This document shows positions 45,933-60,885 of a stretch of DNA of 64,000 nt, in pieces. This stretch comes from a virus, in IMG/VR virus record IMGVR_UViG_3300037504_000674, positions 28,753-92,752 of that record, one strand, 5' to 3'. The notes beneath the pieces were generated by a model that saw nothing but the letters and a program-made list of their open reading frames with translations, did not search any database and was not told where the DNA came from. The first letter of the stretch is position 1. Each line of letters opens with the position of its first letter. Made by a program: the position numbers and the translations under genes.

Positions 45933-46005
45933 TGGATGTGGCGGGATTTGAACCCGCGACCTCCTCCGTGCAAGAGAGGCGCGCTCCCATCTGCGCTACA
46001 CACCC
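45933..46005 (-). tRNA. tRNA-Ala(TGC)
   Basis: CCTCT-CT TGC AC-GGAGG; G3:U70. Confidence 0.92.
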
Positions 46006-46009
46006 AAGT

Positions 46010-46173
46010 TATCAGCAGAGAGCGAGGGGCAGGACTCGAACCTGCAACCGCAGCCTGTCAACTGCGTAGGCGCCCAGGAAATCCAAGTGACAGCTTGGAC
46101 GCCTGCGGATACACCTCTCGGCTCACATAGGAGCCTTAGCCTCGCTCTGTGGCAGCCCTCGCTCTCTACTGAC
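46010..46173 (-). ncRNA. tRNA-like structured ncRNA (T-arm, long closing stem, kissing loops; manA-like candidate)
   Basis: GCAGG-TTCGAGT-CCTGC; 18-bp terminal stem; complementary loops CTGTCA/TGACAG. Confidence 0.65.
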
Positions 46174-46179
46174 AATCAG

Positions 46180-46250
46180 GGCGGGTGAGGGGGATCGAAC
46201 CCCTATCATTGGCTTGGAAGGCCAAGGCCCTACCGTTGGACTACACCCGC
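46180..46250 (-). tRNA. tRNA-Gly(TCC)
   Basis: TTGGC-CT TCC AA-GCCAA. Confidence 0.88.
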
Positions 46251-46253
46251 ACA

Positions 46254-46324
46254 TACGGGCAGCCGGACTTGAACCGGCATCTTCAGCATGGCAAGCTGAC
46301 GTTCTACCGTTGAACTACGCCCGT
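46254..46324 (-). tRNA. tRNA-Gly(GCC)
   Basis: TCAGC-TT GCC AT-GCTGA. Confidence 0.88.
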
Positions 46325-46335
46325 TAAAACCGGTG

Positions 46336-46479
46336 TTAAGCCGATTCGCCATTGAGATAATGCACACGCTCGGCGGCCTCCTCCGGCGTATTCCAGTCGC
46401 TTTCTGGGAACCATTTCCCAGTTGGGTCATAAAACCCGACCGTCCATAGACCCGGCTCAGATCGAATATACACGTACAT
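46336..46479 (-). CDS. Small phage protein (47 aa, MYVYIRSEPGLWTVGFYDPTGKWFPESD...AAERVHYLNG)
   Basis: Read manually; AAGGAGG RBS; own promoter. Confidence 0.7.
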   Translation of the reverse strand: MYVYIRSEPGLWTVGFYDPTGKWFPESDWNTPEEAAERVHYLNGESA

Positions 46480-46515
46480 CTATTGCCTCCTTCGCCTCGT
46501 TTGGCATCCTAGTGT

Positions 46516-46543
46516 ATTATATCACGTTGTTGTTAACTATCAA
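46516..46543 (-). promoter_or_regulatory. Sigma70-type promoter TTGATA-N16-TATAAT (second half of the tRNA array)
   Basis: Near-consensus, extended TG. Confidence 0.65.
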
Positions 46544-46576
46544 CTGACATGCATCACGTCACAAGCGTGACATACG

Positions 46577-47059
46577 TCAAACCTCAAGATATACTTTCCA
46601 ACTCTTGGGTATTCTTCCTCTTGCCACCAGATAGTCAACCCTGGGTGTTTTTGGTTCCCACATGAGCTTCATACCGGCCTCATGTGGGGTGCGGTCTGCT
46701 TTACGCTGATTGCACTCGTAGCATGAGCAAATCGTGTTACCCCATGTGCTCTTGCCGCCGTGCGATACCGGGACCACATGGTCAATCGTTCGGCCCGGCC
46801 TACCGCAGTACCCGCATGTATAATCATCGCGCTTGATCACACCGCGACGTGTCCATCTCGCGTTTCGTCTGGGTACATTTACATAGTGTTTAAGCCGGAT
46901 AACCTCCGGCACATCAAAACAACCGGACACAGTTTTGAAGCTGCGTGCCAGATCGTCGGTTACACCATGCGCAACATTCTTCCAGAGCAGCGTGGCCGCT
47001 TTGCGGTCCGACACCACGCGCAACGGCTCGTAACTTGCATTAAGCAATAGAACTGACAT
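46577..47059 (-). CDS. HNH endonuclease (McrA-like, VLLLNASYEPL family)
   Basis: RD.YTC.YCG...TIDHVVP.S.GG...W.N...C..CN..K. Confidence 0.9.
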   Translation of the reverse strand: MSVLLLNASYEPLRVVSDRKAATLLWKNVAHGVTDDLARSFKTVSGCFDVPEVIRLKHYVNVPRRNARWTRRGVIKRDDYTCGYCGRPGRTIDHVVPVSHGGKSTWGNTICSCYECNQRKADRTPHEAGMKLMWEPKTPRVDYLVARGRIPKSWKVYLEV

Positions 47060-47071
47060 TTTTTCTCCTAG

Positions 47072-47145
47072 TGAGGGTGGCAGGATTTGAACCTGCGGTC
47101 CTTGGCTTAAAAGGCCACTGCTCTACCAGGCTGAGCTACACCCCC
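47072..47145 (-). tRNA. tRNA-Lys(TTT)
   Basis: TGGC-CT TTT AA-GCCA. Confidence 0.88.
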
Positions 47146-47150
47146 AAACA

Positions 47151-47231
47151 TGGCGATAGAGGGAGTCGAACCCTCATGCTTTCGCGGTGCATTTTAACTG
47201 CCCTGTGTATGCCTGCTTCCACCATATCGCC
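47151..47231 (-). tRNA. tRNA-Leu(TAA) copy 1 (imperfect anticodon stem)
   Basis: GGGCA-GT TAA AA-TGCAC, variable arm GC-GAAA-GC. Confidence 0.75.
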
Positions 47232-47235
47232 TTAG

Positions 47236-47317
47236 TCTCGCCGCAGGGAGTCGAACCCTGATAGTCACTAGGACACTGGTTTTAAACCAGCCGCGTAGCC
47301 ATTTCCGCCACGGCGAG
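47236..47317 (-). tRNA. tRNA-Leu(TAA) copy 2
   Basis: GCTGG-TT TAA AA-CCAGT, long variable arm. Confidence 0.8.
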
Positions 47318-47324
47318 GTGAATC

Positions 47325-48179
47325 TTAACTGCGCTCTTGGCAATGAACCCTTAAGTGTTTCTTTATTGCGTTGTCAGACACGCCAAGTTCTCTTCCCAAA
47401 GCAGAGTAGTTGCTTTCATCAAGTCTTTGTCTAAGTTCTTCGCAGGAGGGCCAATCTATCTTGAAGTTAGCCCGATGCTTTCCGGCGCATGGCTTGCACC
47501 TCGTCGCGTTACATGATATTTTTGCGCCGCAGTCCACACAATACTTCTGCTCTGATCCTCTTTTTATCTGCAAGCCATTTTTTGCCATCAGCTTGTATGC
47601 CCTGTTGTATGTTGCGCCTATGGAGAGACCTACCGAGAGCAACGCCTGCCTAATGCTATCTTCTTCCCTGAGCGCTCTCAACAATTCCTCATCACTAACT
47701 ACAGCATTTGACTTGTTCTTGCCACAATAAGTAGGTGTTTGGGAGTGGCAGTTTGGGCACAAGAATCTTAGGTTCGACAACCTATGATCTCTGCGTCTTC
47801 CATTCACATGATCTAGTTGAAGAACAAGCTCTTCCCCCATCCACTTCCCGTCATTTCCGCAAATATCGCACGCATATGGAATTAGCCCTTCTTTTATAAT
47901 AATTTCTTTGATAGTGTTGCGCGGCGTCTTCGAGCCTTTACAGAACTTTTCGTCTGGCGAGGCTCCTATTCTTTCATCAGAGTATGAGGTTTTCCCAAGC
48001 GCCCACCCCTGCCCAAGAAAGTGATCAGTCTGTATCCCCAAATTTTCTATTCTGTCCCTTACAAGAGCGTGACTCCCGCTGCCCTTTAGTCCAAGCTTCT
48101 TTCTTACAGAAGCATAAGACTCAGATGTTTTACATGCCTCTATCAATTGATCATCTGTCCAACTTCTTCTTCTGCTCAC
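47325..48179 (-). CDS. Free-standing HNH homing endonuclease with HTH/zinc-finger modules
   Basis: CDICG...LQLDHVNG...D.RLSNLRFLCPNCHSQT; CVDCG...CKPC; LGVSDNAIKK; GTG start at 48179 inferred. Confidence 0.85.
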   Translation of the reverse strand: MSRRRSWTDDQLIEACKTSESYASVRKKLGLKGSGSHALVRDRIENLGIQTDHFLGQGWALGKTSYSDERIGASPDEKFCKGSKTPRNTIKEIIIKEGLIPYACDICGNDGKWMGEELVLQLDHVNGRRRDHRLSNLRFLCPNCHSQTPTYCGKNKSNAVVSDEELLRALREEDSIRQALLSVGLSIGATYNRAYKLMAKNGLQIKRGSEQKYCVDCGAKISCNATRCKPCAGKHRANFKIDWPSCEELRQRLDESNYSALGRELGVSDNAIKKHLRVHCQERS

Positions 48180-48268
48180 TTTTCCCCCTATTAGGAAACT
48201 AAAGGGGCTATCTTGGTGAATAGGCACCAAGAAGGGCCGTCGCCTTTTCGCCCCGATTGACAACAGTG

Positions 48269-48722
48269 CTGGTGGTTTCCGCATTTCCTTCGACCACCGA
48301 CGCAGCGCATCATTTTCTTCTCTTAGGTATTTCCATTTCCCGTCATCTGGGCTTAGTGCGTAGGAATCCAATGCCCCCAGCTAGTTCTTTTGCGCGGAAG
48401 CCAGTCATTAGTGCGCTGGCGGCGCTCAAGCTCTGCACGCCATCGCTGCCACCCCGATCTCCGATAAACCTTGAGCAGCATGTCCGCGAAAACTGGGTAA
48501 GGGTCATCGGGCCAGCTATAGTATTGCGTTAAGTCTATACTGCGATACGCCTCAGACAGCTCATGCGTCCAGGGGTAGCACATAACCCGCCCAATCAACC
48601 TTTGGCGCAGCCGCTCGTCGGTAAGCCATAGCGGATTTACATCGTTGCTGCTAATCAGGTGCCCGCACTGGTGGTTTCCGCATTTCCTTCGACCACCAAC
48701 GCAGCGCATCATTTTCTTCTCT
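48269..48722. repeat. 55-bp direct repeat (48269-48323 and 48668-48722, 1 mismatch)
   Basis: CTGGTGGTTTCCGCATTTCCTTCGACCACC(G/A)ACGCAGCGCATCATTTTCTTCTCT. Confidence 0.9.
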
Positions 48723-48916
48723 ACGCCCTCGACGAATGGGCACAGCCAGCCATCATGCCATGAAACAGAGAGCGGGCCAAAATCACCCCACAATTTACGT
48801 GCCGACTCGCCAAGAGTGGGGTAGCAGTAGTATTCTTTTGGCTCCATCCACTTCACTTTGCGACCGTAGCGGTTCTTTATCCAAAGCCCTTTACGGGTCC
48901 GGCGCTCCATTTTCAC
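48353..48916 (-). CDS. Hypothetical protein
   Basis: GGAGG RBS right after tRNA-Arg. Confidence 0.5.
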   Translation of the reverse strand: MKMERRTRKGLWIKNRYGRKVKWMEPKEYYCYPTLGESARKLWGDFGPLSVSWHDGWLCPFVEGVEKKMMRCVGGRRKCGNHQCGHLISSNDVNPLWLTDERLRQRLIGRVMCYPWTHELSEAYRSIDLTQYYSWPDDPYPVFADMLLKVYRRSGWQRWRAELERRQRTNDWLPRKRTSWGHWIPTH

Positions 48917-48929
48917 TTTTGCCTCCAGG

Positions 48930-49002
48930 CTCCCCCGTCAGGACTCGAACCTGAATCACCCACTCCGCAGGCGGGCACTCTATCCAATTGAGCTACAGGG
49001 GA
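48930..49002 (-). tRNA. tRNA-Arg(GCG)
   Basis: CCCGC-CT GCG GA-GTGGG; Arg-type D loop GGATA. Confidence 0.85.
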
Positions 49003-49003
49003 A

Positions 49004-49075
49004 TGCGAGCAGGGAGAGTCGAACTCCCGTCTGCGGCTTGAGAGGCCGCTATCCTTCCCGCTAGACGATGCTCGC
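49004..49075 (-). tRNA. tRNA-Glu(CTC)
   Basis: GCGGC-CT CTC AA-GCCGC. Confidence 0.88.
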
Positions 49076-49078
49076 TAG

Positions 49079-49202
49079 TGGAGATGGCCGGAATCGAACC
49101 GGCGTCCGCAATGCGTACATGCTCCTCGCCGCAAGTTTGTTCTCCGCGCTTTTCTCTTGCTAGAAACATGCCTGTAGCACCACGTCTAATCCGATCATCC
49201 CC
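49079..49202 (-). ncRNA. ssrA: Miniature tmRNA-like RNA (124 nt)
   Basis: 5' GGGGATGATCGGATTAGAC; 3' GGACGCCGGTTCGATTCCGGCCATCTCCA; G3:U70; no D-stem; long helix 2; no pseudoknot ring. Confidence 0.8.
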
Positions 49203-49204
49203 AA

Positions 49205-49292
49205 TGCGGGCGGGGGGAGTCGAACCCCCACCAAGGTTCAACCTTGTACCTGGCGCCTAAGACCAGAGCATCTGCCATTCTGCCACGCCCGC
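49205..49292 (-). tRNA. tRNA-Leu(TAG)
   Basis: CTGGT-CT TAG GC-GCCAG, long variable arm. Confidence 0.88.
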
Positions 49293-49298
49293 TTGATC

Positions 49299-49326
49299 AT
49301 TATACTGCTTTTGCCGAACTTGTCAA
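49299..49326 (-). promoter_or_regulatory. Sigma70-type promoter TTGACA-N16-TATAAT heading the RNA island
   Basis: Perfect hexamers; predicted +1 coincides with the 5' G of tRNA-Leu. Confidence 0.75.
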
Positions 49327-49368
49327 AACCTTAAGGGGGAGGGTTTTGACGCCCTCCCCGCAGTGGCT

Positions 49369-49734
49369 CTACAGCTCTTCAATCATCGCCTGAATCTCTT
49401 CGGGCGACAACTCTTCAAGCTGCTGTTCTTGCTTGCGCTCTAGCACTTCTAGTAACTGCCGCTTCTTGGCGGCACGTGCAGCCTCGTTCTTGGCTTGCTG
49501 CCGCTCTTCCAGCTTGACACCGACAATGTGCTTGATGATGCCGATCTTCAACTGCAAGACATCATCCTGCTTACCCTCAGAAAGAAGGCTGTCTTGTTGC
49601 TGTTCCCTTGCGACTCGATTAAGGTTTTGGTAAATGCTGTCCAGAGCCTCACAGCTCAAGTCCCAAAGGTCCTCTGCGCACAGAGAACCGCGATACTGCC
49701 ACCGTAACTTCAAACGCAGCGCCTCTTCAAACAT
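49369..49734 (-). CDS. Conserved phage coiled-coil protein (MFE.A.RLKLR...EDLWDL)
   Basis: Recalled phage family usually adjacent to the upstream large gene. Confidence 0.7.
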   Translation of the reverse strand: MFEEALRLKLRWQYRGSLCAEDLWDLSCEALDSIYQNLNRVAREQQQDSLLSEGKQDDVLQLKIGIIKHIVGVKLEERQQAKNEAARAAKKRQLLEVLERKQEQQLEELSPEEIQAMIEEL

Positions 49735-49744
49735 TTTGTCCCCC

Positions 49745-51781
49745 TTAGTTGAAAACGACTTTGACAATACGATTACCGTTGATCCTCGCCACAATGTAAT
49801 TATCTCTTGTGGCGCTGAATCCTACGCCGGAAAGTTGCTCGTCATCATCCTCTACCCGCATCTTATTGCCAAGCGCTGCAAAAATGCGCTTGTGCTTCAT
49901 CAATTCTTCTGGAAGATACTCGTTGAAGAAGCCGCTTGGCCTTTCGTCGTTCTTGGTACCAGGAATCATGAATAAGTAGTGCCGGTGCCCAATGTGATTA
50001 TCACCCCAGTAGTTTGGCGAGTAACACACCAACGACACTCGATGGAACCGATTGGTATCCAGGCCCCAGACCTCGCGGCTGCTGTCCGATGTAGGCAGAG
50101 ACTTGATGAAGCGGATACCGCGCTGTCTATCGAACTCGATTTTGGCGACAAGCACCTGCCCCTTGTGCGGTATATCCTTGCGGTATTCAAACTCGAATAC
50201 CTGACCATTATACTCGATCTCCGCAGAAAAGCCAGATCGCCCACCCCGATGCTGATAGTTTTTGACAAACAGCTTATAAACACCGGGTTGCATGAGGCTA
50301 GGGTCAGACCAGGTGATATTTTCTACTGCCACCTGTCTAACCTTTGGGTGAATGATGTCTACGTCAAGAACACCAGAAGACGGATGTGTTTGTCGTTTGT
50401 TGGGAAAGTAGATGTGGTTTCCGTCGGGCTCGATGCAATGCGCGTCATAGTCATTACGGTTGTCAAATTCTTCATTCCATTGCAACGAGAACCTCAGAAC
50501 GCCCTTGACGTTCCCGCCAGCCGCCTTGACCCGGCGCTTCATATCCGAGTCCGCCATGTTACCAGAGTATGCCCAAGTAAATCCATTGCTCCACTTTGTC
50601 AGTGGCTTGCTATCGGTTGCTTGTGGAGCAATCAAAGAGACGAGGTTAGCTGCGTGCCGATTCTCAAGCAGAACCTCGATCTTGGCGGATTCCGGGATGA
50701 CATTGTCGATGAATTCCTGAGCACCTACCGCTGCGACATCACGGAACTTGCGCGGGTTGACAGTTTCTTCATCCCTTAAAACATCGAATACACCCCCGCT
50801 GCCCGCCATGTGCGGCATCGCATCTCGGTCGGCGAACAGCACGTCATTCACGGTAACGTCTCTGAGGTGAGCAAACCTACGCGGCAGAGCGCTCGTGACC
50901 CCCAGCCTCTCCGCATCCTCTTCGGCTTCGTCAACCATCTTGCGTGTATAGATGGCTTTAGGCCGCTTATAGTTATGCGGCGCGACGATGTTCTCGTAAC
51001 GACGCACGGATTCGATAACGTCCTTGCCATCTGAGATGTCAGCGAGCAGGACGCCGATAGAGTGATTGCGTAACCTAGTCAGCGCGCCGCCAGCCTCGGC
51101 GGCCTGCTTCCAACAGAAGTTTGTCTTCTGATTTTCTGGTAGTTCCGAGTATTCGTGTTGCAACACGCGGAACCTACTCAGGAGCCCGCGCCACTCCTCG
51201 CCCTTATACAGATTGCCCTCCTCAATGAGATCGAGGATAGTCTCGATCGCGTAGGGGTCAATCTCTTCTAGCGAGCGTTCAAAGACGTGCCGTGAGTCTC
51301 TGATGGTGGCCTGGAACTCGCTTGCGGTTTGGTGATCTGGGACCACCAAATGATCTGGCAGCTCGACATAGAAGTGGTGCCATGTATGAACATCGCCACT
51401 CTCAAGCATTTCCCGGTTTGCGTTAGTGCCAATCTTCGCCAGCTTAGAGGCAAAGGTGTTGGCCACCGGATTACTCTTGACGTACTCTGATAGGGCATCG
51501 ATGACTGGCTGGTAAACCTCGTCAGCCTCGAAGTCCCACACCGACACAAGTTCGTTATCAACGATGGCGACCACGTCGCCGAACTTCTTGATGAAGTGGC
51601 GGCAGCACGAACAATCAAATGCCCTGCGTTCGCGGTAGATGCCGTTGACGCCTTCCGGGAAGCTGTCTAGGTACAACTCCCAGAGCTGCTCGTGATCTAC
51701 ATCTGTCACGAACAACACAGACTCGGATGACATCGAATCGAAATGCTCTTGGAACAACGCCTTGAATTCTTTGAATTGCAT
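49745..51781 (-). CDS. Large conserved phage protein with CSCC motif and YfaP/DUF2135-like domain
   Basis: FDCSCCRHF; LRFSLQW...DYD.H..EP.G...LDVD...AVENITW. Confidence 0.75.
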   Translation of the reverse strand: MQFKEFKALFQEHFDSMSSESVLFVTDVDHEQLWELYLDSFPEGVNGIYRERRAFDCSCCRHFIKKFGDVVAIVDNELVSVWDFEADEVYQPVIDALSEYVKSNPVANTFASKLAKIGTNANREMLESGDVHTWHHFYVELPDHLVVPDHQTASEFQATIRDSRHVFERSLEEIDPYAIETILDLIEEGNLYKGEEWRGLLSRFRVLQHEYSELPENQKTNFCWKQAAEAGGALTRLRNHSIGVLLADISDGKDVIESVRRYENIVAPHNYKRPKAIYTRKMVDEAEEDAERLGVTSALPRRFAHLRDVTVNDVLFADRDAMPHMAGSGGVFDVLRDEETVNPRKFRDVAAVGAQEFIDNVIPESAKIEVLLENRHAANLVSLIAPQATDSKPLTKWSNGFTWAYSGNMADSDMKRRVKAAGGNVKGVLRFSLQWNEEFDNRNDYDAHCIEPDGNHIYFPNKRQTHPSSGVLDVDIIHPKVRQVAVENITWSDPSLMQPGVYKLFVKNYQHRGGRSGFSAEIEYNGQVFEFEYRKDIPHKGQVLVAKIEFDRQRGIRFIKSLPTSDSSREVWGLDTNRFHRVSLVCYSPNYWGDNHIGHRHYLFMIPGTKNDERPSGFFNEYLPEELMKHKRIFAALGNKMRVEDDDEQLSGVGFSATRDNYIVARINGNRIVKVVFN

Positions 51782-51818
51782 TGGTTTATCCTTTCGGCTA
51801 TAGAAAAGTTTCCAAATA

Positions 51819-52235
51819 TCACCGCATCTCAGCAAGGGCGTCATACATGGCCGTAACAAGCGTGGGCGCCCACCCGATCGCTAGTCTTTTAGTGTGCCCC
51901 CTCAGCACCCATCGCCCAAGCTCTGCGCTATATCTGAACCAGACATTGTGTCTGGTGAGCAACCGCTCCATCTCGTCTGCCACGAACCGATGCAGAAAAA
52001 CTTCCGCATCGTGGCAATAACTAAACTCCGTGGGTGTATACCACGGGCTTCCGCATAGCGCAAGGGCGTCGTCTATCAACATGTTGGAATACTCAATCGA
52101 TTTTCCATCGACGGCTTTAACGAACAGCGTGTGGTCGTAGTGTCTGAAGTAGCGAACAATGGCGTCAGCGTGTTTGTTGTCCAGGCGTCTCCTTTCCTCT
52201 TCTGTCATTTGATCTTTGTTCAGTTCGCTCAACAT
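51819..52235 (-). CDS. Hypothetical protein, paralog of 57085..57753
   Basis: Shared LF..A..GKS..Y.NML.DD..AL.GSP......F.YC. Confidence 0.7.
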   Translation of the reverse strand: MLSELNKDQMTEEERRRLDNKHADAIVRYFRHYDHTLFVKAVDGKSIEYSNMLIDDALALCGSPWYTPTEFSYCHDAEVFLHRFVADEMERLLTRHNVWFRYSAELGRWVLRGHTKRLAIGWAPTLVTAMYDALAEMR

Positions 52236-52238
52236 TTT

Positions 52239-52469
52239 TTATCCTCCAGTGGTGGTTAGTATCATGGCTTTGTTGACATCATCCTCTTCAGCAAGTGATA
52301 GAACTCGCCTAGCGCACTCCAAGTATTGTTGTTTGGTGACGCCTTGGGCGGACAAGATAATGTGAGAAGGAATGATGGATCGGTTAAGGGATAGAAACTC
52401 TGCTGCACCCCGCGCGCTTCTGCCACGCCGGGCAGTCGCCGCAGCCTGGCGCTGGCTTCGTGGGGTCAC
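52239..52469 (-). CDS. Hypothetical protein
   Basis: Fills the operon gap. Confidence 0.4.
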   Translation of the reverse strand: MTPRSQRQAAATARRGRSARGAAEFLSLNRSIIPSHIILSAQGVTKQQYLECARRVLSLAEEDDVNKAMILTTTGG

Positions 52470-52486
52470 GGGTCGTGCGCGTCGTT

Positions 52487-52879
52487 TTACTGCTCGTCAT
52501 CGGGTACCTCTAATTTAACCGTCTTCGGCGCAACGTGGTCGCGCCACTCCAACAGCGCCGTGCGATCGTCGTGCTCGCTAACATCTATGCGCTCTTGGAG
52601 AAGGTCGTCGCAGTACGCTTGCACCTCTGCGCGGATTCCGTCAATCTCGTCTGCGCCATGATACTGAATCACCACAGCGCCTAGATCGTGGAGATTGCGT
52701 AGCATAAAAGACGAACAGGAGGCATCAAGCGTAATCGCCGTATAATATCGACCGTGGCGTAATTTACCCCGCCATTCCTCGAACCCGTGAATTGGTCGCG
52801 GTGCGTTAAACACTATTGCGTCTTTTGGTACACCCTCAGGTCGTGGTGAGAATGTGTGGACAATCTCAAATTCTGGCAT
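52487..52879 (-). CDS. Hypothetical protein
   Basis: AGGAG RBS. Confidence 0.6.
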   Translation of the reverse strand: MPEFEIVHTFSPRPEGVPKDAIVFNAPRPIHGFEEWRGKLRHGRYYTAITLDASCSSFMLRNLHDLGAVVIQYHGADEIDGIRAEVQAYCDDLLQERIDVSEHDDRTALLEWRDHVAPKTVKLEVPDDEQ

Positions 52880-52912
52880 TGTTCTCTCCTAGTCTAGTTG
52901 AATACACTTCAA

Positions 52913-52986
52913 TGCCCCCACCAGGACTCGAACCTGGAACCCACTAATTAGAAGTTAGTGGCACTATCCACTTGTGCTATGGGGGC
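52913..52986 (-). tRNA. tRNA-Arg(TCT), isolated
   Basis: ACTAA-CT TCT AA-TTAGT. Confidence 0.9.
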
Positions 52987-54504: not shown

Positions 54505-54552
54505 CAGTGGTGGGGGCTTCGCGGGATTGCCGGGATAAGCTCCCGGCGGGCC
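54505..54552 (-). ncRNA. Repeated pseudoknot element, copy A (5' half only)
   Basis: GGCCC-GCCGGGA/TCCCGGC-AAT-CCCGCG-AAG-CCCCCACCACTG. Confidence 0.55.
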
Positions 54553-54561
54553 CTTCCCGCA

Positions 54562-54816
54562 TTATCCTTCTGCGAAGGCCGCAGCTTTTTCAAATGCCTC
54601 CACCTTCAGTTTGTCTTCATCCTCGAACGGCACCGTTTTTTCCCAGAGCGTCTTGTAAGGATCGCTCTTCAGGAAAATTTGTGCCGTGGCCTCCGTGTTC
54701 ACTAGCGTAAACGGAGTCCAGTCCGTGATAAACCGAACGACAACACCCTCTCGCTCGTATCGAAGTTCTAACACGTTGCTGTCCACCTTCTTGAACCCAC
54801 GATTCACCTTATCCAT
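54562..54816 (-). CDS. Hypothetical protein
   Basis: GGGAGG RBS. Confidence 0.6.
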   Translation of the reverse strand: MDKVNRGFKKVDSNVLELRYEREGVVVRFITDWTPFTLVNTEATAQIFLKSDPYKTLWEKTVPFEDEDKLKVEAFEKAAAFAEG

Positions 54817-54845
54817 TTCTATTCCTCCCTGTTTAACTAACCTTC

Positions 54846-54930
54846 TCCCCACCACCTGCCCGCTTTTCGGGCTTACCCCGCGCCACCAGTAGTGGGGATT
54901 TGCGGGATTGGCAGTGGTGACGGGATGCCA
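54846..54930 (-). ncRNA. Repeated pseudoknot element, copy B
   Basis: Conserved architecture with different hairpin sequences. Confidence 0.65.
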
Positions 54931-54945
54931 GCCCGGCCGACAATG

Positions 54946-55932
54946 TCACTCTTCGTCGGACGTCTCGCCGGGTGCCTCGGGCGTCTCGGGCGCTTTCGGC
55001 ACACGCCAGCGGCTCCGCGTCCAGTACCGCCCTCCTCCGCCCGCTTCCGCGAGCGGCAACTCAAAAAATTCCCCAATTGAGTATCCGTGGTTTTCGTTTC
55101 CAAGCGCATCCAGATACTCTGTCAGTATCTGATGTGCCTCAAAGGGGTCGCTTGGTACACCAAATGGCACCTCTAGTAGCCTGCATGCGGGCCCAGCAAC
55201 GTCCTCCCAATTCACGAGGACTTGCCGATGGTCCTTGTGACTATAAACAACGGCCTTACCACCAAGATTGAATATGTAATTCTGGCAACAATGCGCCAGT
55301 ACAACTTTGATTGCCGTCATGCTCGCCTCATTGAGCGACACCTCAGATGACCATCCGTCCCGGCAGCAGCCCCAGCAGCACATCGTTCTTCTCCTTCGTG
55401 TTGTGCCCAGCCCATGGTGGCGCGGGGCCTTGGAGCGGTGCGTGGTATTGTGGGCTGCCGCATACCCCCTGGACGAGAAGCCTGTCCAGGATTTAAACTC
55501 GGACGACAGGAGCTCGCGCTCCTCCTCAGAGCCGCCGTAGGGGCGAATCTCGCCCTCCACGACGAATCCCGCCCCGCTCCGCACGATTTTGCCGACATCC
55601 CCGTCGGCAAAATCGCCGACGGGCATCGCGACAGCGCCGCGACCATCTGGCGGGCCGCCGTTATCATCCGCTGGGTTGCATCCCACAATCTCGATTACAG
55701 CGTCAATATACAAAATTACCAAAATCAGGATGTTGCCGTCTAGGGCCGGGTCATCTTCCGGGTCATTCTCATTTCGATCCCACCCCAGCATGCGCTCAAG
55801 CTCCTTCATGCGCGCAACAAGCGCGCGCCCGCGCTCCGTCGTCGGTTCGCCCTGCTCGGGCAGTTCGCCACGGTGGAACAGCTCGAGCGAGATGTCGCTG
55901 TGCTCCTGCTTCAACTTGGTTTCATTTAACAT
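54946..55932 (-). CDS. Hypothetical protein (possibly two in-frame genes)
   Basis: AGGAGG RBS at the start; low-quality middle; second Met at MTAIKVV. Confidence 0.4.
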   Translation of the reverse strand: MLNETKLKQEHSDISLELFHRGELPEQGEPTTERGRALVARMKELERMLGWDRNENDPEDDPALDGNILILVILYIDAVIEIVGCNPADDNGGPPDGRGAVAMPVGDFADGDVGKIVRSGAGFVVEGEIRPYGGSEEERELLSSEFKSWTGFSSRGYAAAHNTTHRSKAPRHHGLGTTRRRRTMCCWGCCRDGWSSEVSLNEASMTAIKVVLAHCCQNYIFNLGGKAVVYSHKDHRQVLVNWEDVAGPACRLLEVPFGVPSDPFEAHQILTEYLDALGNENHGYSIGEFFELPLAEAGGGGRYWTRSRWRVPKAPETPEAPGETSDEE

Positions 55933-55952
55933 TTGCTTCCTCCTGTTTAACC

Positions 55953-56246
55953 CTATAACACTTCTATGACAACCCCATCTTCAAAATTACACCGGAAACA
56001 AATCGAGATGCTCTCGCCGGCTTGCGTCGCAAAGCGGAATTCCACTTCGATCGCGTGTCGGCAATGAGCAATAACCCCCCAATCCTCATCCAATTCCATA
56101 ACACCCAGCTCCCTGTGCGCTATGGCACGTGCCCTATGCAACATATTTTCAATCACCGAATCCTCTCTGCTTGCTCGACCTTCTCTCCACGACTTGTGAC
56201 TATCTTGAGTGACTTCTTCGAGTCGCTCTAAAACCTCCGCCTCCAT
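55953..56246 (-). CDS. Hypothetical protein
   Basis: GGAGG RBS. Confidence 0.55.
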   Translation of the reverse strand: MEAEVLERLEEVTQDSHKSWREGRASREDSVIENMLHRARAIAHRELGVMELDEDWGVIAHCRHAIEVEFRFATQAGESISICFRCNFEDGVVIEVL

Positions 56247-56549
56247 CTATTCCTCCCTATTTGTTAGACTTTCCTCCCCACTACCGGGGGCACCCCAAAG
56301 CCTTTCCCTTTCCGCTCGTGCCCGTGCCGCCGCCAGCGCCGCCTTGCGCACTAACCATCCGGGTGACTGTAGCCTACTACCGCTGGCGTCAAACCACGCA
56401 GTAGGATCACCGCAAAAGGCTGGCACAAACTCAAACTCAAGCTCAACTGTCATGTCATCTAGGAATACAACTTTCACCATCGGCTCTTCGATTTTGACGA
56501 TGATGTTATACTTGCTTTCCCAAACCTTCTTAGCCTGCGCGGGTGTCAT
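56247..56549 (-). CDS. Hypothetical protein
   Basis: GGAGG RBS. Confidence 0.55.
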   Translation of the reverse strand: MTPAQAKKVWESKYNIIVKIEEPMVKVVFLDDMTVELEFEFVPAFCGDPTAWFDASGSRLQSPGWLVRKAALAAARARAERERLWGAPGSGEESLTNREE

Positions 56550-56552
56550 ACC

Positions 56553-57092
56553 CTATCCTCCGCAGCCCTCGCAGGCTGGGCTTCCGAAGAAGTCAGTCCC
56601 CGAGGCCGACATCCCGCAATAATGGCATACGGGATCGGCCTCGTCTACGGGGGCCTCGAACCGCTTCGCCCATCGTCGGGCCTGCTCATGAACGTCTCCG
56701 GTTGCTTTAAAAGCAAACTCGCAATCACCATTTCCCATACTCAGGTAAACAGCACTGCTCTCCGACACAGAGAGTAGATACCTATCACCTATATAAACCA
56801 CCCTAAGTATCTCTCGGCGGCCTCCCGTGCCGAACGAGGGCTTGTACCACGTCGCGCCTACGCGATTCAGCGCTTTGGCGGACTCGTAATCAACCGCGTC
56901 AACCCTGCTCAGATACTCTTCCTGAGCACCATTCTCACGGTCGATTGCAGCTTTTGCGTCCTCAATGGTCTCGAATCCGTAACCGGCGGTGGCCTGATAC
57001 GGCTTGCCGCCAAGACGTCGATTTAAATACGAGGCACTGAATTTGCCATCCTGGTTAACTCTAATTACGCCATCGTGATAATGCTTATTCAT
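56553..57092 (-). CDS. Hypothetical protein with C-terminal zinc ribbon
   Basis: CHYCG...CEGC. Confidence 0.6.
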   Translation of the reverse strand: MNKHYHDGVIRVNQDGKFSASYLNRRLGGKPYQATAGYGFETIEDAKAAIDRENGAQEEYLSRVDAVDYESAKALNRVGATWYKPSFGTGGRREILRVVYIGDRYLLSVSESSAVYLSMGNGDCEFAFKATGDVHEQARRWAKRFEAPVDEADPVCHYCGMSASGTDFFGSPACEGCGG

Positions 57093-57753
57093 TGCTCTTC
57101 TCCTTGGTTTGCATCACCTTAAAATGATCGGACAAGTATAACTCGTACAGGTGCTCCGCCTCCGACAGTGCATCATCGGTGGCGCGGACGCCGTCCTCCA
57201 ACACCTCGAACTGGTCATCAAGCTCGGTTTGCTGTAGGAAATACACAAGGTCATCGACAGTTGCGAAGTGTGTATCCTCCTCCCATCGAGCTCCATACGG
57301 GAGGTGTCTCACCACCCATCCTAATGCGTCATCGCGGATGCATTCGATACCCGCGACGATAGCGTGGAACTGGTTGGAAGCGCCGCCTTCGACCAGAATC
57401 TCCCCGTCTTTCAGCACACGGAACGAATGATCCCGTTCCGTGTAATCAAGGACGTAGGGCCCTAGCGCCAGGGCGTCCTTGAGTTCTGGCTTGATGAACT
57501 CAAACAGAAACTCACAGGCTTCGTCGCAGTACCTGAAATTTGTGAGCTGGAAAAATGGGGAACCGACTAACGCAATACTATCATCAAGTAACATGTTGGC
57601 GTACTTCGACGATTTTCCTTTGGTTGCTCGCTTGAACAGATCGTCGTTGTAACGCTCGTTATATTTCCGCATAGCCGCGAGGTCTGTGGTATTGACTTCA
57701 GCTTTCGCCGCCTCGTTCATCTTCGAGTATTTTTTGTGTATATCGGAAAACAT
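57085..57753 (-). CDS. Hypothetical protein, paralog of 51819..52235
   Basis: AAGGAG RBS; shared N-terminal domain. Confidence 0.7.
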   Translation of the reverse strand: MFSDIHKKYSKMNEAAKAEVNTTDLAAMRKYNERYNDDLFKRATKGKSSKYANMLLDDSIALVGSPFFQLTNFRYCDEACEFLFEFIKPELKDALALGPYVLDYTERDHSFRVLKDGEILVEGGASNQFHAIVAGIECIRDDALGWVVRHLPYGARWEEDTHFATVDDLVYFLQQTELDDQFEVLEDGVRATDDALSEAEHLYELYLSDHFKVMQTKEKSNE

Positions 57754-57757
57754 TTTT

Positions 57758-58153
57758 TCACTCCTTTAGCCACAGGTAGCCCAGTTCATCTCGGTCGAAC
57801 GTGCTATTGCAAGCACGCTCAAACAGACGCACATTGTCTTGAGCAGAGTGGGTCGGCCTAAACCAGATTTGCACAACCCGCTCGGATGAGATAATCTCAT
57901 CCCGCAACTCAAGCCCAACTCTCCTGAGCTCCGGGACAAGCGCGTCCATGATTTCGCTGGCGTACTCCTCTTCGTCTTTTCGCCAGCCGAGCGACACTGC
58001 GAGGGATGGATAAACCGCCCCCGACTGGTGTTTGCTAACGTATGCAAACACTACGTCGCCGCCCTCGATTGGCCCACCACGGGGCGCCTCAGTGGTGGTG
58101 ACCCATTCTTCTTTACCCCGCATAACGGGGCCGACCATTTTCACCTTAGTCAT
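57758..58153 (-). CDS. Hypothetical protein
   Basis: GGAGG RBS. Confidence 0.55.
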   Translation of the reverse strand: MTKVKMVGPVMRGKEEWVTTTEAPRGGPIEGGDVVFAYVSKHQSGAVYPSLAVSLGWRKDEEEYASEIMDALVPELRRVGLELRDEIISSERVVQIWFRPTHSAQDNVRLFERACNSTFDRDELGYLWLKE

Positions 58154-58157
58154 CTTA

Positions 58158-59315
58158 TTATCCTCCAAATAACCTTGATAGCCAGCCCCGCCGTTTGGGC
58201 GGCTCAACAACAGCCCATTGGCGGCTTTTCCCTTGCACATACTCATGAACTTCGTCATCGCTGACGAAGCTCCCTTGGAATCGCACCGACCGACCGGGGA
58301 CCGACAGAATCCCATCACCCCGCCCGGCCAACTTCTCCGCACCCGCGCTATCTAATACCACGCGGGAATTCACGGCAGACGCCATGGTGAAAGCCACGCG
58401 CGCCGGGAAGTTAGCTTTCACGACGCTATTCACAACGTCCGCTGTTGGATATTGGGTCGCCAAAATAATATGCAACCCTGCGGCCCTGCCCTTCTGAGCA
58501 ATGAGCGTCAACTGACGCTCAATCTCTTTTCCTCTATCGCTCATGACGAGATCGGCATACTCGTCAATCACAATAACGACATCTTGGTCGCCGCTCAGGC
58601 TAATATCTTTGCGGCGACCGCACACTTCAAATTTCAGTTTAATACCTCCGGAGGTGAGTTGCTTGAAGTCCCTCACGCCCTCCTGGGCCATGGCCTGGTA
58701 GCGGTGCTCCATGACCGCTACCAGGATTTTGATTGCCGCCAGCGCCTCAGGGGGACTACGGAACACCATCCCGCCGCTATGCGGGGCTGACACGAACGGC
58801 GTCAGCTCAACACGCTTTGGGTCAATCAGGAATAGGCTCAGGTCTTCTGGCGAATAATCGCGCACCAGCGAACACAACATAGCGTTGATGCATACGCTCT
58901 TGCCGGAACCCGTTTGACCGGCAATCAGAACGTGCGGAGAGATACTATCTCTCAAATTCAACGCGGCCTCTTTACCCTTTACTGTCTCCCCAAACCGGCA
59001 CCACAGGCCGTCTCCGGCCTGGCTGTTGGGCAGCGATACATTCTTGCTCGACTTCTTCGGGACCTCAATCCAGATTTCCCCATCATCCACCTTGAGCGTC
59101 AATCCTCCAACGCCCAGGGCGACACCCACGTCTGTGAGACTTGATTTAATTTGCCTCACAGTCAAATAATCTTTTCTCTCGCGCCCGGTTGGCGTATAGC
59201 GCCTTCCGGGCTCAACTCGGAATCGTGTAAGCTGAGGTGCCTCGACAACCTCAACCACACTAATTTCCTTGTTGAATCTGCTGTACGCCCCCTCAATGTC
59301 GTTTTTATCCATCAC
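58158..59315 (-). CDS. FtsK/SpoIIIE-family ATPase (soluble; no TM or gamma domain)
   Basis: PHVLIAGQTGSGKS, LIDPKRVEL, IVIDEYADL, GRAAGLHIILATQ, GAEKLAGRGD. Confidence 0.9.
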   Translation of the reverse strand: MMDKNDIEGAYSRFNKEISVVEVVEAPQLTRFRVEPGRRYTPTGRERKDYLTVRQIKSSLTDVGVALGVGGLTLKVDDGEIWIEVPKKSSKNVSLPNSQAGDGLWCRFGETVKGKEAALNLRDSISPHVLIAGQTGSGKSVCINAMLCSLVRDYSPEDLSLFLIDPKRVELTPFVSAPHSGGMVFRSPPEALAAIKILVAVMEHRYQAMAQEGVRDFKQLTSGGIKLKFEVCGRRKDISLSGDQDVVIVIDEYADLVMSDRGKEIERQLTLIAQKGRAAGLHIILATQYPTADVVNSVVKANFPARVAFTMASAVNSRVVLDSAGAEKLAGRGDGILSVPGRSVRFQGSFVSDDEVHEYVQGKSRQWAVVEPPKRRGWLSRLFGG

Positions 59316-59659
59316 TCCTCCAGGGGGTTAGTCTGGCCGTAGGCCTCCCCTCTTGAGGAGAAGCCGGCCCACCCCAGTGGATATCGCTCCTCCAGGAGGA
59401 CCCTCTCCGAACCCGTACCATCATAACCCTCAATGATATCACCCTGCACCACTAGCAGGGCGCCCTCGCGGACCAACTCTTTGACCGCGAACGGATCAAA
59501 CTCATCTAGGGGCGCGATCCACGCCGTGCCGTCTGGCGGGGCTCCGTTATCGTCTGATAGGATTCGGCCCTGCCCGCTCCGAATCTCATTTAGGCGCTCG
59601 AACACTTCGTCTTGATTAAAACCGCTTGCAACTTTAACAAGTAATTCTTCCCTAATCAT
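59312..59659 (-). CDS. Hypothetical protein
   Basis: GGAGG RBS. Confidence 0.55.
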   Translation of the reverse strand: MIREELLVKVASGFNQDEVFERLNEIRSGQGRILSDDNGAPPDGTAWIAPLDEFDPFAVKELVREGALLVVQGDIIEGYDGTGSERVLLEERYPLGWAGFSSRGEAYGQTNPLEE

Positions 59660-59680
59660 TTTTTTCCTCCGTTTAGTTTT

Positions 59681-59772
59681 CTCGCTACCCCCTGCTCCCA
59701 CTTCGGGAGCTTACCCCGCACCACCAGGGATAGCGAACCTGCGGGATTGCCGGGATGGGCTCCCGGCGGGCC
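59681..59772 (-). ncRNA. Repeated pseudoknot element, copy C
   Basis: Full architecture with compensatory changes. Confidence 0.7.
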
Positions 59773-59774
59773 TG

Positions 59775-60248
59775 CTAGTTCACCCACTCAATGCGGTCAA
59801 ACTCAAACCGCATTGGGGGCTCGACTGAAATTTCAACATATCCCGCACGCTTTTCATCAATCCTAGCACGCGGATTTGCGAACCCGACAGCACCGGCAAC
59901 ATCAGCTTCAAACATGTTGCCGTCAGAATACGCGAATTCCCGCTTCTGCGTTTCCGGGCGTTCGCCAGGAACGCTATACACAAACCCAATACGCGGGAGT
60001 GCGACGCGCCCCAGACACGCCAGGCCCCACATCGCCTGCGCCACCATCGGCGGCGCGGCTTGAAAAATGACGTGAGTAAATTCACTTGCGCTGTCGAAAA
60101 TGAGGTTTGTCACGTCATCCGCATCTTTGAATGTTGGGTTGATATTCTTGAATTTGACTCCATCGCCGCCAACGTACTCGGAGTACTCACCTTCCGAGTA
60201 CGGGTGACGACCCACCACCAATACATGCGCGTCTGTATGCGCCTTCAT
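59775..60248 (-). CDS. Hypothetical protein
   Basis: AGGAGG RBS; flanked by element copies D and C. Confidence 0.6.
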   Translation of the reverse strand: MKAHTDAHVLVVGRHPYSEGEYSEYVGGDGVKFKNINPTFKDADDVTNLIFDSASEFTHVIFQAAPPMVAQAMWGLACLGRVALPRIGFVYSVPGERPETQKREFAYSDGNMFEADVAGAVGFANPRARIDEKRAGYVEISVEPPMRFEFDRIEWVN

Positions 60249-60277
60249 CTTTTTCCTCCTGTTTGATTAACCCTTTT

Positions 60278-60368
60278 TCCCCACCACCTGCTCCCGCCTC
60301 GGGAGCTTACCCGGCACCGCCAGCGGTGGGGATTTTGCCGGATTGCCAGGATGGGCTCCTGGCGGGCC
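60278..60368 (-). ncRNA. Repeated pseudoknot element, copy D
   Basis: Full architecture with compensatory changes. Confidence 0.7.
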
Positions 60369-60384
60369 TTTTCCGCACTTCCCC

Positions 60385-60885
60385 CTATATACGCCAGTCT
60401 CCATGCACACTCCAGATGCTGGAGACTTCCTCCATCCTACTGAGCAGTCCTTCAAGGTCGTCGAAGGACTCAGTGTAGTGTGGCGGCAGGCCGCCACGAC
60501 ACCACGCCAGACGCGGCTTGTCGTGGTTGCGGGTATCAGCCCACAAGATTGTGTCGCCGCCGTGCGTGGCGGCTCGCAGTCTACAACCACGATTGAGGGT
60601 CTCCGTGATACCCTCCTGGCTCAGGATGACCCATTCAAAATCCGACCACACGCTAAGCGTGATGTGTTCAACATCATGTTTGGCCCGCTCGGGGTCCCCG
60701 GCATCCGAGACTGAGATGCGGCCCTCGACCCCCGCCTCAATCTCGATTTCGGCATTTGGGAACTCCTTGCAGAGCTCCTGGCGTACCCGGTCGATGAACT
60801 CTTCCTGGGATGCTTCCGCATCCCAGCCGTCGGAGTACTCCGATCCGAAGAGGTAATCATGCGCGAGCTCAATCTTGATGAACAT
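60385..60885 (-). CDS. Hypothetical protein
   Basis: GGGAG RBS. Confidence 0.55.
   Translation of the reverse strand: MFIKIELAHDYLFGSEYSDGWDAEASQEEFIDRVRQELCKEFPNAEIEIEAGVEGRISVSDAGDPERAKHDVEHITLSVWSDFEWVILSQEGITETLNRGCRLRAATHGGDTILWADTRNHDKPRLAWCRGGLPPHYTESFDDLEGLLSRMEEVSSIWSVHGDWRI

Follow-up and report, generated by a model that had tools for sequence, protein, structure and literature searches.

The early mRNA of phage T7 is punctuated by structured RNase III sites. These sites, like the REP/BIME repeats of enterobacterial operons, shape the ends and the stability of mRNA pieces, and they are plain or bulged hairpins that serve as host-enzyme targets or as 3' barriers. Hammerhead, twister, pistol, hatchet and HDV-like ribozymes are gene-independent, intergenic and phage-associated, and are sometimes found around single genes. 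The EAR element is an intercistronic pseudoknotted RNA too. The element described here shares with the T7 sites and REP/BIME its nature as a repeated structured RNA between cistrons of a single transcript, independent of gene identity. Unlike them, it forms a pseudoknot, has some 20 fixed bases and is present in unrelated phages of very different GC content.

Copies of the element in the window

The window, the whole 64,000-nucleotide stretch analyzed here, is part of a 92.7-kb virus record that contains exactly three full copies and one half copy of the element (Table 1). All four were found on the minus strand where the earlier note had located them (c1, 60368-60278; c2, 59772-59681; c3, 54930-54846; half copy c4, 54552-54505), each between the stop codon of an upstream open reading frame (TAG for c1 and c2, TGA for c3, TAA for c4) and the next GGAGG-type ribosome-binding site (RBS). 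The order of parts read by that note (hairpin1 - AAU - A - linker - B..CUG - GYGG - A' - GUAA - hairpin2 - AGG..B') was reproduced, and every compensatory change that it listed is present in the copies. Copies c1 and c2 are 81% identical, with compensatory changes in both A/A' and B/B', while the hairpin1 type of c3 recurs in four other members (L056, L081, L045, and L092). In c4 the B 5' strand is joined directly to the RBS; with A', hairpin2 and B' missing, the knot cannot form, and this half copy is probably a deletion remnant.

Table 1. Copies of the element, flanking genes and the parts of copy c1 (positions in the window; CM, covariance model).
Feature	Position	Strand	Remarks
Copy c1, full element (5' flank, hairpin1, pseudoknot)	60278..60370	-	CM R1 105.5 bits, E 1.8e-23; R2 84.9 bits
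Copy c2, full element	59679..59774	-	CM R1 106.6 bits
Copy c3, full element, hairpin1 of different type	54846..54945	-	CM R1 72.7 bits
Half copy c4 (hairpin1, AAUCC, A and B 5' strands)	54505..54554	-	CM R1 35.1 bits; R2 23.5 bits, E 0.008
157-aa ORFan flanked by c1 and c2	59778..60248	-	no Pfam or PHROG match
84-aa ORFan flanked by c3 and c4	54565..54816	-	
c1 hairpin1, GCCAGGA/UCCUGGC, loop GCCCA	60345..60363	-	7/7 pairs covary across the family
c1 invariant AA and helix A 5' strand UCCGGC (its U forms the invariant U.G)	60337..60344	-	
c1 helix B 5' strand UCCCCACCGCUG	60321..60332	-	helix B: both sides change in 9/12 pairs; paired cells, 95.2%
c1 junction L2, G-N-G-G-N, conserved unpaired purines	60316..60320	-	
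c1 helix A 3' strand GCCGGG, crossing helix B	60310..60315	-	pair 65-100 has the top mutual information in the alignment
c1 junction UAAG	60306..60309	-	U in 58/59; A, A, G in 59/59
c1 hairpin2, CUCCC/GGGAG	60291..60305	-	5/5 pairs covary, 95.8% paired; length differs among members
c1 helix B 3' strand CAGGUGGUGGGGA, with bulged G	60278..60290	-	

A family of pseudoknotted RNAs

Homologues were retrieved from viral, metagenome and MAG contigs with a covariance model built from the window copies and with pattern scans. Elsewhere, ~60 distinct homologues have retained this architecture; the 60 matches at E<=5e-4 fall into 45 clusters at 70% identity, with a median pairwise identity of 46% and a GC content ranging from 0.41 to 0.78. 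The RNA as a whole is put at about 70-100 bases; its core measures ~51-90 nt, or ~95 nt with the optional 5' hairpin, which a few members (L020, L054, L069, and L089) lack or have only in rudimentary form. The carrier phages have almost no proteins in common, and none is common to all (BLAST). The window repeats are true copies of a structured RNA common to many unrelated uncultured tailed phages.

The RNA folds as an H-type pseudoknot in which the loop of helix A encloses the 5' strand of helix B. Helix A consists of a U.G pair followed by 5 bp, helix B of ~12 bp with a conserved bulged G inside CAGG, and a variable hairpin is placed between A' and B'. The earlier note had drawn A/A' with six pairs; the U.G and five pairs hold, while its sixth, an N-N pair that is A-U in c1 and c2, does not form in 37 of the 59 sequences. 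All four helices covary in the family alignment, and this is strong for each of them, the pseudoknot helix included, which bears out the proposed crossing. The covariation score is 0.565 vs. 0.144 in shuffles (0 of 500 reach 0.565) and does not exceed 0.087 in a slid-partner control; 93.9% of cells are paired vs. 67.3% in shuffles. The 19 column pairs with the highest mutual information are all proposed base pairs, the first being a pseudoknot pair. Within A/A', pairs 65-100, 67-99, and 69-98 covary, and the central pair occurs as four pair types with zero mispairs. Since this helix was left out of the search covariance model, its covariation support is independent.

Around 20 fixed bases (AAUCC, CUGGNGG, GGGUAAG, and CAGG) are grouped at the helix junctions. 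A61, U62, C63, and C64 are invariant in 59 of 59 sequences. G93, G95, and G96 are equally constant (59/59), a count demanded by the retrieval pattern, and they are also kept in the extra copies found independently of it. That pattern is partly responsible for the constancy of the junction bases, and the independent test comprises six copies only: G92 is replaced by C twice and U104 by G once, the remaining fixed bases being kept, and the first hairpin2 pair varies in two of the six, once together with its covarying partner.

Across the helices, G.U and U.G combinations number 89 vs. 18 for A.C and C.A; this excess and the invariant U.G place the fold on the sense-strand RNA. The same figures bear on the possibility that the element works as DNA, whether by promoting recombination or delimiting cassettes, by binding a protein as an operator, or by moving as a miniature repeat. 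Pairs of copies bracket single ORFans in six contigs (the window, L025, L038, L048, L049, and L127), a truncated half copy is present, and contigs have hairpin1 sequence types in common. Thus, the bracketing on which the earlier note had based its suggestion of cassette shuffling recurs in five other contigs, but nothing shows recombination at the element. A DNA-level element is extremely improbable given the strand-specific covariation (5:1 for G.U over A.C), an orientation that is always sense to both neighbors, and crossing helices that are meaningless in duplex DNA. Terminal repeats and target duplications were not found, nor were genes for transposase, TnpB or reverse transcriptase.

Comparison with known RNA classes

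A search with Rfam 15 (4227 models) at the gathering threshold returned only tRNAs and one tmRNA in the window, none of them at 54-61 kb. At E<=10 the element region gave five chance-level matches (the best with 20.2 bits vs. a gathering score of 90), and in 14 other members nothing overlapped the element. No tRNA is located at the element, all 29 lying at 43-53 kb (ARAGORN and the Rfam tRNA model). With no Rfam match, covariation in every helix and a wide and diverse membership, the undescribed structured RNA class suspected in the earlier note is a new, previously uncatalogued RNA family.

Hammerhead ribozymes resemble the element in having a CUG-purine-N-G-purine heptamer between two helices and a purine-rich strand before a hairpin, as well as in their presence in metagenomic phage-like sequence. 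Helices that cross in the linear drawing are found in the pseudoknotted non-circular hammerhead permutations SGC and CSG (Eckert et al., 2023; PMC10085705). Both classic and permuted hammerheads were rejected: CUGGNGG is present in 59/59 sequences, with A6 and A9 of CUGANGA both replaced by G, the junction is UAAG with no GAAA block, and no hammerhead model matches. In addition, the strand enters A' at the top of helix A and exits at the bottom, so that there is no three-way junction.

HDV-like ribozymes, including the phage theta ribozymes (PMC10879173), are similarly phage-borne and gene-independent. The likeness extends to crossing P1- and P2-like helices, a P4-like variable hairpin before the last strand, and an outermost wobble in the first helix, adjoining free upstream sequence. 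This class was also rejected. The P3 hairpin, the L3 loop and P1.1 are missing, with only 5 nt (GNGGN) in their place; column 89 pairs with column 147, outside this segment. Hairpin2 abuts the CAGG of helix B, hence a single-stranded J4/2 bearing a catalytic C is missing. The wobble U62.G103 is the reverse of G1.U, and no HDV model matches.

Two further systems were discarded. The ncRNA arrays of UG27 reverse transcriptases are made of units of 135-167 nt beside the UG27 RT (bioRxiv 10.64898/2026.09.22.753630); here, five carrier genomes have no RVT_1 match, and the ~95-nt units are separated by genes. For TnpB/OMEGA guide RNAs, PF07282 has no match in five carrier genomes, and sequence variation falls on both strands of internal helices instead of on a free guide.

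The preQ1-II aptamer (RF01054), in its published structure, has the same strand topology, with a dispensable upstream hairpin, an HLout pseudoknot and an embedded hairpin; its fixed bases are likewise at the helix junction, and it also lies just 5' of a gene. It was rejected because RF01054 gave no match, the Shine-Dalgarno (SD) sequence is downstream of B' and not in the 3' strand of the second helix as in preQ1-II, and the genes are unrelated ORFans rather than queuosine genes. Moreover, the carriers are phages of many hosts, not Lactobacillales. Could the junction be a pocket for another small molecule or ion, altering expression or stability of the message as a riboswitch does? The topology, the concentration of fixed bases at the junction and the location, mostly 5' of an RBS, would suit such an aptamer. 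However, there is no expression platform (the SD lies outside B' at variable spacing, with no terminator), the genes that would be controlled have no common function and no Rfam riboswitch matches, which leaves this proposal highly doubtful. As for an aptamer that would sense a host immune or stress second messenger ahead of anti-defense ORFans, it is unlikely, its chances being very slight.

Gene context

The element is a cis-encoded RNA, transcribed within co-directional early and DNA-metabolism operons. Its neighbors on both sides, ORFans and DNA-metabolism genes, encode almost entirely unrelated proteins, few of which have any family match. The distance from B' to the SD varies from ~0 to >50 nt, and the SD is never within the fold. 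No U-tract or terminator follows the element, and promoter and terminator scans of the window region stayed at chance level; in L040, a perfect sigma-70 promoter is located downstream of the element. Most carrier genomes have a single copy, among them a complete 73.6-kb genome (G001). With unrelated neighbors, few shared carrier proteins, a free RBS and no terminator, function can therefore only be inferred. The three roles offered by the earlier note, a self-cleaving ribozyme, a nuclease-blocking stabilizer and a put-like antiterminator, are all among the candidate readings weighed below.

One candidate role is that of a cis-acting processive antiterminator in the manner of HK022 put and the Bacillus EAR: while still nascent, the knot would attach to the elongating polymerase, which would then read through terminators of the early operon. 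An intergenic, neighbor-independent location within long co-directional operons is consistent with this role, as are the copies of G002 and G004, which follow a divergent promoter region at 0.8-1.6 kb. Antitermination is nevertheless distinctly unlikely, as terminator-like sites are not enriched downstream, copies just 600 nt apart and the L040 copy directly before a promoter are unexpected, and there is no likeness to the Rfam EAR model.

Alternatively, the element may bind a protein or the host machinery for downstream expression, as a translational operator, an enhancer (ribosome standby or recruitment) or a site recognized by an RNA-binding regulator. In ~80% of copies, an SD and a start codon follow within 10-40 nt. 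Furthermore, the element of one clade (L008, L016, L019, L035, L087, and L089) has a stable association with a single unknown protein of 250-325 aa, and an extra small hairpin stands ahead of the SD. That most genomes have one copy only fits a specific regulatory site no worse than it fits general punctuation. Such a binding site is still unlikely: no protein unites the carriers, the downstream genes are otherwise unrelated, the SD lies at widely differing distances, and no gene follows some of the copies.

Somewhat less unlikely is a passive roadblock or end-cap, a non-cutting knot that would stop exoribonucleases (5'-3' RNase J, or 3'-5' PNPase and RNase II/R) or invading ribosomes and would leave each flanking cistron to decay on its own. 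It would be the counterpart of xrRNA, coremin and REP elements in phages of bacteria. Like the xrRNAs of flaviviruses and the coremin/xrRNA-C of plant viruses, the element is a compact pseudoknot with fixed tertiary bases, placed where it would meet a 5'-3' nuclease ahead of the downstream sequence. The crossing fold is mechanically stable and well supported, its intercistronic placement disregards gene identity, the core is always at least 21 nt beyond the upstream stop, out of reach of a terminating ribosome, and in L040 it lies at the 3' end of a transcription unit. On the other hand, xrRNAs belong to eukaryotic RNA viruses and act against Xrn1, and no Rfam xrRNA family matches. Simple hairpins already block bacterial 3' exonucleases, and many bacterial groups do without RNase J, yet the family spans its whole GC range. 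The ~20 fixed unpaired bases also exceed what an obstacle needs, though xrRNAs too have fixed tertiary bases.

Possible punctuation of phage messages

The reading that we tentatively favor, as a possibility suggested by sequence, is that the element may be an autonomous punctuation mark in polycistronic phage mRNA, probably self-cleaving. The folded core would cleave its own backbone, making it a candidate for a new class of self-cleaving ribozyme, the putative cleavage site being the invariant AA-U where hairpin1 gives way to the knot. The upstream message would then end in hairpin1, and the downstream message would start with the compact knot just before its RBS. Autonomy is favored by the unrelated neighbors, the scarcity of proteins common to the carriers and the broad GC range, and the reading also draws on the well-supported fold and on the lack of a switch or terminator. 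Copy pairs that bracket single genes are as expected from a per-cistron processing site, and the distribution of the known self-cleaving ribozymes, which resembles that of the element, was counted in favor of self-cleavage. Counted against it was the Rfam search of 148 kb of carrier loci, which yielded one tmRNA only and no known ribozyme. The fold is unlike every known ribozyme class, therefore catalysis is a guess from general features; to our knowledge, most complex motifs that came from bioinformatics were negative once assayed for self-cleavage. The narrower proposal of a new small self-cleaving ribozyme (a single H-type pseudoknot in which a hairpin is embedded, the active site being a GNGG/UAAG/CAGG junction) with which diverse phages would cut polycistronic early transcripts into individually capped messages is rather doubtful.

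For the phages that carry it, the most likely job of the element, judged from its fold and placement, would be the cutting or capping of long messages. In the case of punctuation by self-cleavage, the decay and translation of adjacent cistrons would thereby be uncoupled.

Position and architecture of the copies

Inspection of the sequence and of the open reading frames finds four elements on the minus strand where the earlier note had placed them, three of them complete (c1, c2 and c3) and one reduced to its 5' half (c4). Each lies between the stop codon of an ORF and the GGAGG-type ribosome-binding site (RBS) of the ORF that follows in the same orientation. The parts follow in the order originally read, namely hairpin1, AAU, strand A, a short A-rich linker, strand B ending in CUG, GYGG, A', GUAA, hairpin2, AGG and B', and all the compensatory differences listed between the copies are present. 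The virus record itself (IMG/VR, 92.7 kb, 84% complete by CheckV) contains no others beyond c1, c2, c3 and the half copy c4. The half copy ends after CUG and runs directly into the RBS, and therefore contains neither crossing helix; it is most simply a deletion remnant.

The sequence of hairpin1 falls into types, each conserved from contig to contig. The type GGCCCGCCGGGAGCCCAUCCCGGC is present in c1, c2 and c4 and on the metagenome contigs L024 and L041, and the type GGGCUGGCAUCCCG..ACCACUGCC, which folds weakly, in c3 and on L056, L081, L045 and L092, so that the window phage carries both. Minimum free energy folding of the three full copies without pseudoknots gives z-scores of -2.45, -2.81 and -0.42; since these values are modest and the helices mixed, they were set aside as evidence.

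Coordinates of the elements and of associated features (window numbering unless a contig is named)
Feature	Position	Strand	Remark
c1, full element	60368-60278	-	read on minus strand
c2, full element	59772-59681	-	read on minus strand
c3, full element	54930-54846	-	read on minus strand
c4, 5' half copy	54552-54505	-	read on minus strand
Hairpin1 type of c3	54905-54945	-	GGGCUGGCAUCCCG..ACCACUGCC
TAG stop before c1	60385-60387
TAG stop before c2	59775-59777
115-aa protein	59315-59659	-	after c2
FtsK/SpoIIIE-like ATPase	58161-59315	-	PHROG 1358, E 7e-74
328-aa protein	54949-55932	-	before c3
29 tRNA genes	43253-52986	-	several arrays
tmRNA-like gene	49076-49202	-	within tRNA array
Short tmRNA match	L081:4224-4345	+
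Element followed by promoter	L040:1760-1846	-
Distant members of the family	L005:1689-1784, L018:10599-10692		two members
Extra small hairpin before Shine-Dalgarno sequence	L008:8314-8346, L016:5262-5290, L019:9502-9535		also L087, L089, L035
Copies found by the model alone	L048:950, L049:1204, L081:2575, L025:1, L038:1049, L127:2278		six copies

A family in uncultured phages

Homologues were retrieved with a pattern of the fixed junction words from three collections: IMG/VR, a metagenome collection and the GTDB genomes. The IMG/VR scan added six viral contigs that have the architecture in full, with new compensatory A/A' variants among them (CCUGUG/CACAGG, CCUGGU/ACCAGG and CCUGUC/GACAGG), and the metagenome collection gave 74 loci. 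The convincing ones among the 23 GTDB loci are all on short MAG contigs, probably mis-binned phage; matches in Erwinia, Rhizobiaceae and a delta-proteobacterium are weak (23-27 bits) and look like chance. A first covariance model (R1), built from four sequences with hairpin1, hairpin2 and B/B' included and A/A' excluded, scored 60 elements at E<=5e-4. With the second model (R2) a clean gap separates true members, at 35 bits or more, from marginal matches at 27 bits or less. Covariance models of the kind suggested in the earlier note thus support the family, and the helices covary among the roughly 60 homologues.

The family comprises 59 distinct full sequences in 45 clusters at 70% identity, with a median pairwise identity of 46%, a core length of 51-90 nt and a GC content of 0.41-0.78. 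In the collections searched all its occurrences are in uncultured phage sequence, which comes from many habitats; it is absent from cultured phages and bacteria. Among GenBank phages, megablast with a 6.3-kb window region returned nothing, and blastn with c1 gave one 29-nt match at chance level and no relative. DNA of the window region is present in three DNA runs, all tidal-flat metagenomes; none is listed as RNA.

Covariation and the folded strand

Standard pairs fill 93.9% of the cells of the family alignment, where shuffles give 67.3%. Its covariation score of 0.565 compares with 0.144 when shuffled (0 of 500 shuffles reach the observed value), and falls to 0.087 or less when the partners are slid by 1-3 columns. 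The crossing of A/A' and B/B' holds across the alignment. Helix A/A' is the best supported of all: its central pair, with U-A 29 times, C-G 18, G-C 11, A-U once and no mispair, has the highest mutual information in the entire alignment, and this support was not imposed by the search model since A/A' was missing from R1. The 19 top mutual-information column pairs are all proposed base pairs; the same analysis gave no further tertiary pairs across the family alignment.

Wobble pairs identify the folded strand. G.U and U.G outnumber A.C and C.A by 89 to 18, and an invariant U.G pair closes the outer end of helix A, from which it follows that the fold is that of the sense-strand RNA and not of the complementary strand or of duplex DNA. 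The element is a fold of the sense-strand RNA, kept by strong purifying selection, and it is hardly credible that it acts as a DNA-level element.

Refined anatomy

Hairpin1 is optional, with 7 bp of free sequence, and is followed by A60 and A61 (alignment columns). Helix A consists of U62.G103, C63-G102, C64-G101 and three covarying pairs; the helix as first drawn stands, except for an extra A-U pair, which is unpaired in 37 of the 59 sequences. Helix B, of about 12 bp, is reached through 3-5 nt of A-rich linker; its outer part is free and its inner end fixed as C90 U91 G92 / C143 A144 (G145 bulged) G146. The junction between B and A' reads G93 N94 G95 G96 N97 and that from A' to hairpin2 U104 A105 A106 G107. 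Hairpin2 varies in length and often ends in a loop of the GAAA or GAGU type, with GAAA as the cap in the L038 copy; the 3' tail of the element is A-rich. In this fold the fixed bases all converge where helix A, helix B and hairpin2 meet.

The invariance of these bases is partly ascertained because the retrieval pattern demanded AUCC, CUGGNGG, GGGUAAGC and GCAGG. In the six copies found by the model alone, G92 is replaced by C in two (CUCG) and U104 by G in one; two copies differ in the first hairpin2 pair, one of them with a covarying partner, and every other fixed base is retained. In the past, most compact RNA folds with comparable covariation and fixed junction bases have proved to be ribozymes, riboswitches or specific binding sites for machinery. 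That the element is a roadblock or insulator without catalytic activity is somewhat unlikely, the main weakness of this reading being the many fixed unpaired bases.

Comparison with known classes

The element has no Rfam 15 family, at the gathering threshold or at E<=10, in the window or in other members, and ARAGORN calls no tRNA at it. Pseudoknotted hammerhead permutations exist (PMC10085705), and the heptamer CUGGNGG resembles the hammerhead CUGANGA. However, every sequence has G in place of both essential adenines, a GAAA is missing, and the strand traverses helix A' end to end, leaving no three-way junction, so that the hammerhead is rejected, permuted types included. HDV-like ribozymes share the crossing helices and a hairpin, but the element has no P3, L3 or P1.1 and no J4/2 with its catalytic C, and the wobble is reversed. 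The preQ1-II aptamer has the same strand topology and differs in sequence, Shine-Dalgarno placement and genes. Five carrier genomes contain neither a reverse transcriptase, as in UG27 RT-associated arrays, nor a TnpB-type gene or domain, as for a TnpB guide RNA, which excludes the recently described RT-array and OMEGA-type RNAs.

The earlier proposal of an undescribed structured RNA class stands, given the strong covariation and the lack of a cmscan match to Rfam. A description of the motif was not found in the literature, where the element may already figure, without description, among the 10,006 anonymous IMG/VR RNA candidates of a 2023 catalogue (PMC10690425). The element is a new fold and a new family, outside every catalogued class tested; its function we infer.

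Genomic context and possible function

Virtually every copy of the element is flanked on both sides by ORFs that run in its own direction. Hairpin1 typically begins 5-13 nt past the upstream stop and the knot at least 21 nt past it; the start codon is usually 10-40 nt downstream of B'. The Shine-Dalgarno sequence is never within the fold, at a distance from B' of about 0 to more than 50 nt. The stop codon before the element is UAG in 28 of 56 members and UGA in only 7 (about 56 family members), whereas all crude ORFs of at least 100 aa on the same contigs have 22% UAG and 40% UGA (Fisher p about 1e-4 for the UAG excess and 3e-5 for the UGA deficit). 'UAGCA' is found eight times at these stops. 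The bias may arise where the stop overlaps an A-rich stretch flanking the motif on its 5' side, or RF1 stops may be preferred.

The proteins downstream of the element are nearly all singletons, as are those upstream, and most are ORFans. Recognisable neighbours are early or DNA-handling proteins (FtsK/SpoIIIE-like, helicase, ParA/ParB-like, DNA methyltransferase, PAPS-reductase-like and Ant). In one clade (L008, L016, L019, L087, L089 and L035) the element precedes the same 250-325-aa protein, with an invariant Y-x2-ERA-x2-E-x-P motif and, at ~312 aa, no Pfam, PHROG or PDB relative; here an extra small hairpin with a GAGUG/AUGUG-type loop stands between element and Shine-Dalgarno sequence. On one contig (L040) a perfect sigma-70 promoter, TTGACA-N17-TATAAT, directly follows the element, which there stands at the end of a transcription unit and not at the head of a gene. 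A few other copies also have no evident gene start behind them. The element is unlikely to be a translational operator or enhancer, or a site bound in some other way by a protein or the ribosome, given that the downstream gene is variable or absent, and the same observation makes a riboswitch aptamer very improbable.

The family copies have no U-tract after the element, and scans for promoter- or terminator-like sites around the window copies stay at chance level. The put-like antiterminator among the functions first proposed, here a put/EAR-like processive one, is distinctly unlikely: the copies are closely spaced and terminators are absent. Pairs of copies bracketing single genes, remarked on earlier, occur in the window and on five other contigs.

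Among the ORFans between the motif copies of the window lies an FtsK/SpoIIIE-like ATPase. A 78-residue domain (44% identity, E 4e-11; DDNGxPPDG ... GFSSRG) is common to the 115-aa protein that follows c2 and the 328-aa protein that precedes c3; judged by sequence, the two are paralogous ORFans of the same early region. The window phage also encodes 29 tRNAs covering nearly all amino acids, an unusual translational autonomy for a phage of ~93-110 kb, and a miniature tmRNA-like gene of ~125 nt (Rfam tmRNA model, 68.6 bits; no tmRNA call there by ARAGORN). A very similar short match lies between the two motif copies of L081, which is thus probably a relative of the window phage.

The carrier phages have almost no proteins in common by BLASTP, and an all-against-all comparison of 19 carrier contigs found no family common to all. 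The element is self-contained, can move between unrelated phages and does not depend on which gene lies beside it. As it has neither a switch platform nor a partner gene detectable at BLAST level, we infer that its target is either the transcript that carries it or some universal machinery of the host. It is possible, from fold and context, that it is an autonomous punctuation element, predicted to cleave itself; this reading is put forward tentatively, and against it most carriers have a single copy, the complete genome G001 (73.6 kb) exactly one, mid-operon. Self-cleavage would leave the upstream fragment capped at its 3' end by hairpin1 and the downstream fragment capped at its 5' end by the knot, with the invariant AA-U.G junction as a plausible putative cleavage site.

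Being absent from Rfam and confined to uncultured phages, the element is a clean and readily testable candidate, at ~55-95 nt and with natural variants at hand. If self-cleaving, it would represent a further class of ribozyme and offer operon engineers a natural insulator part. If instead its role is to block nucleases or to redirect polymerase or ribosomes, it would show the means by which phages of unrelated genomes handle their long early transcripts, the tool being a shared, horizontally spread RNA module.
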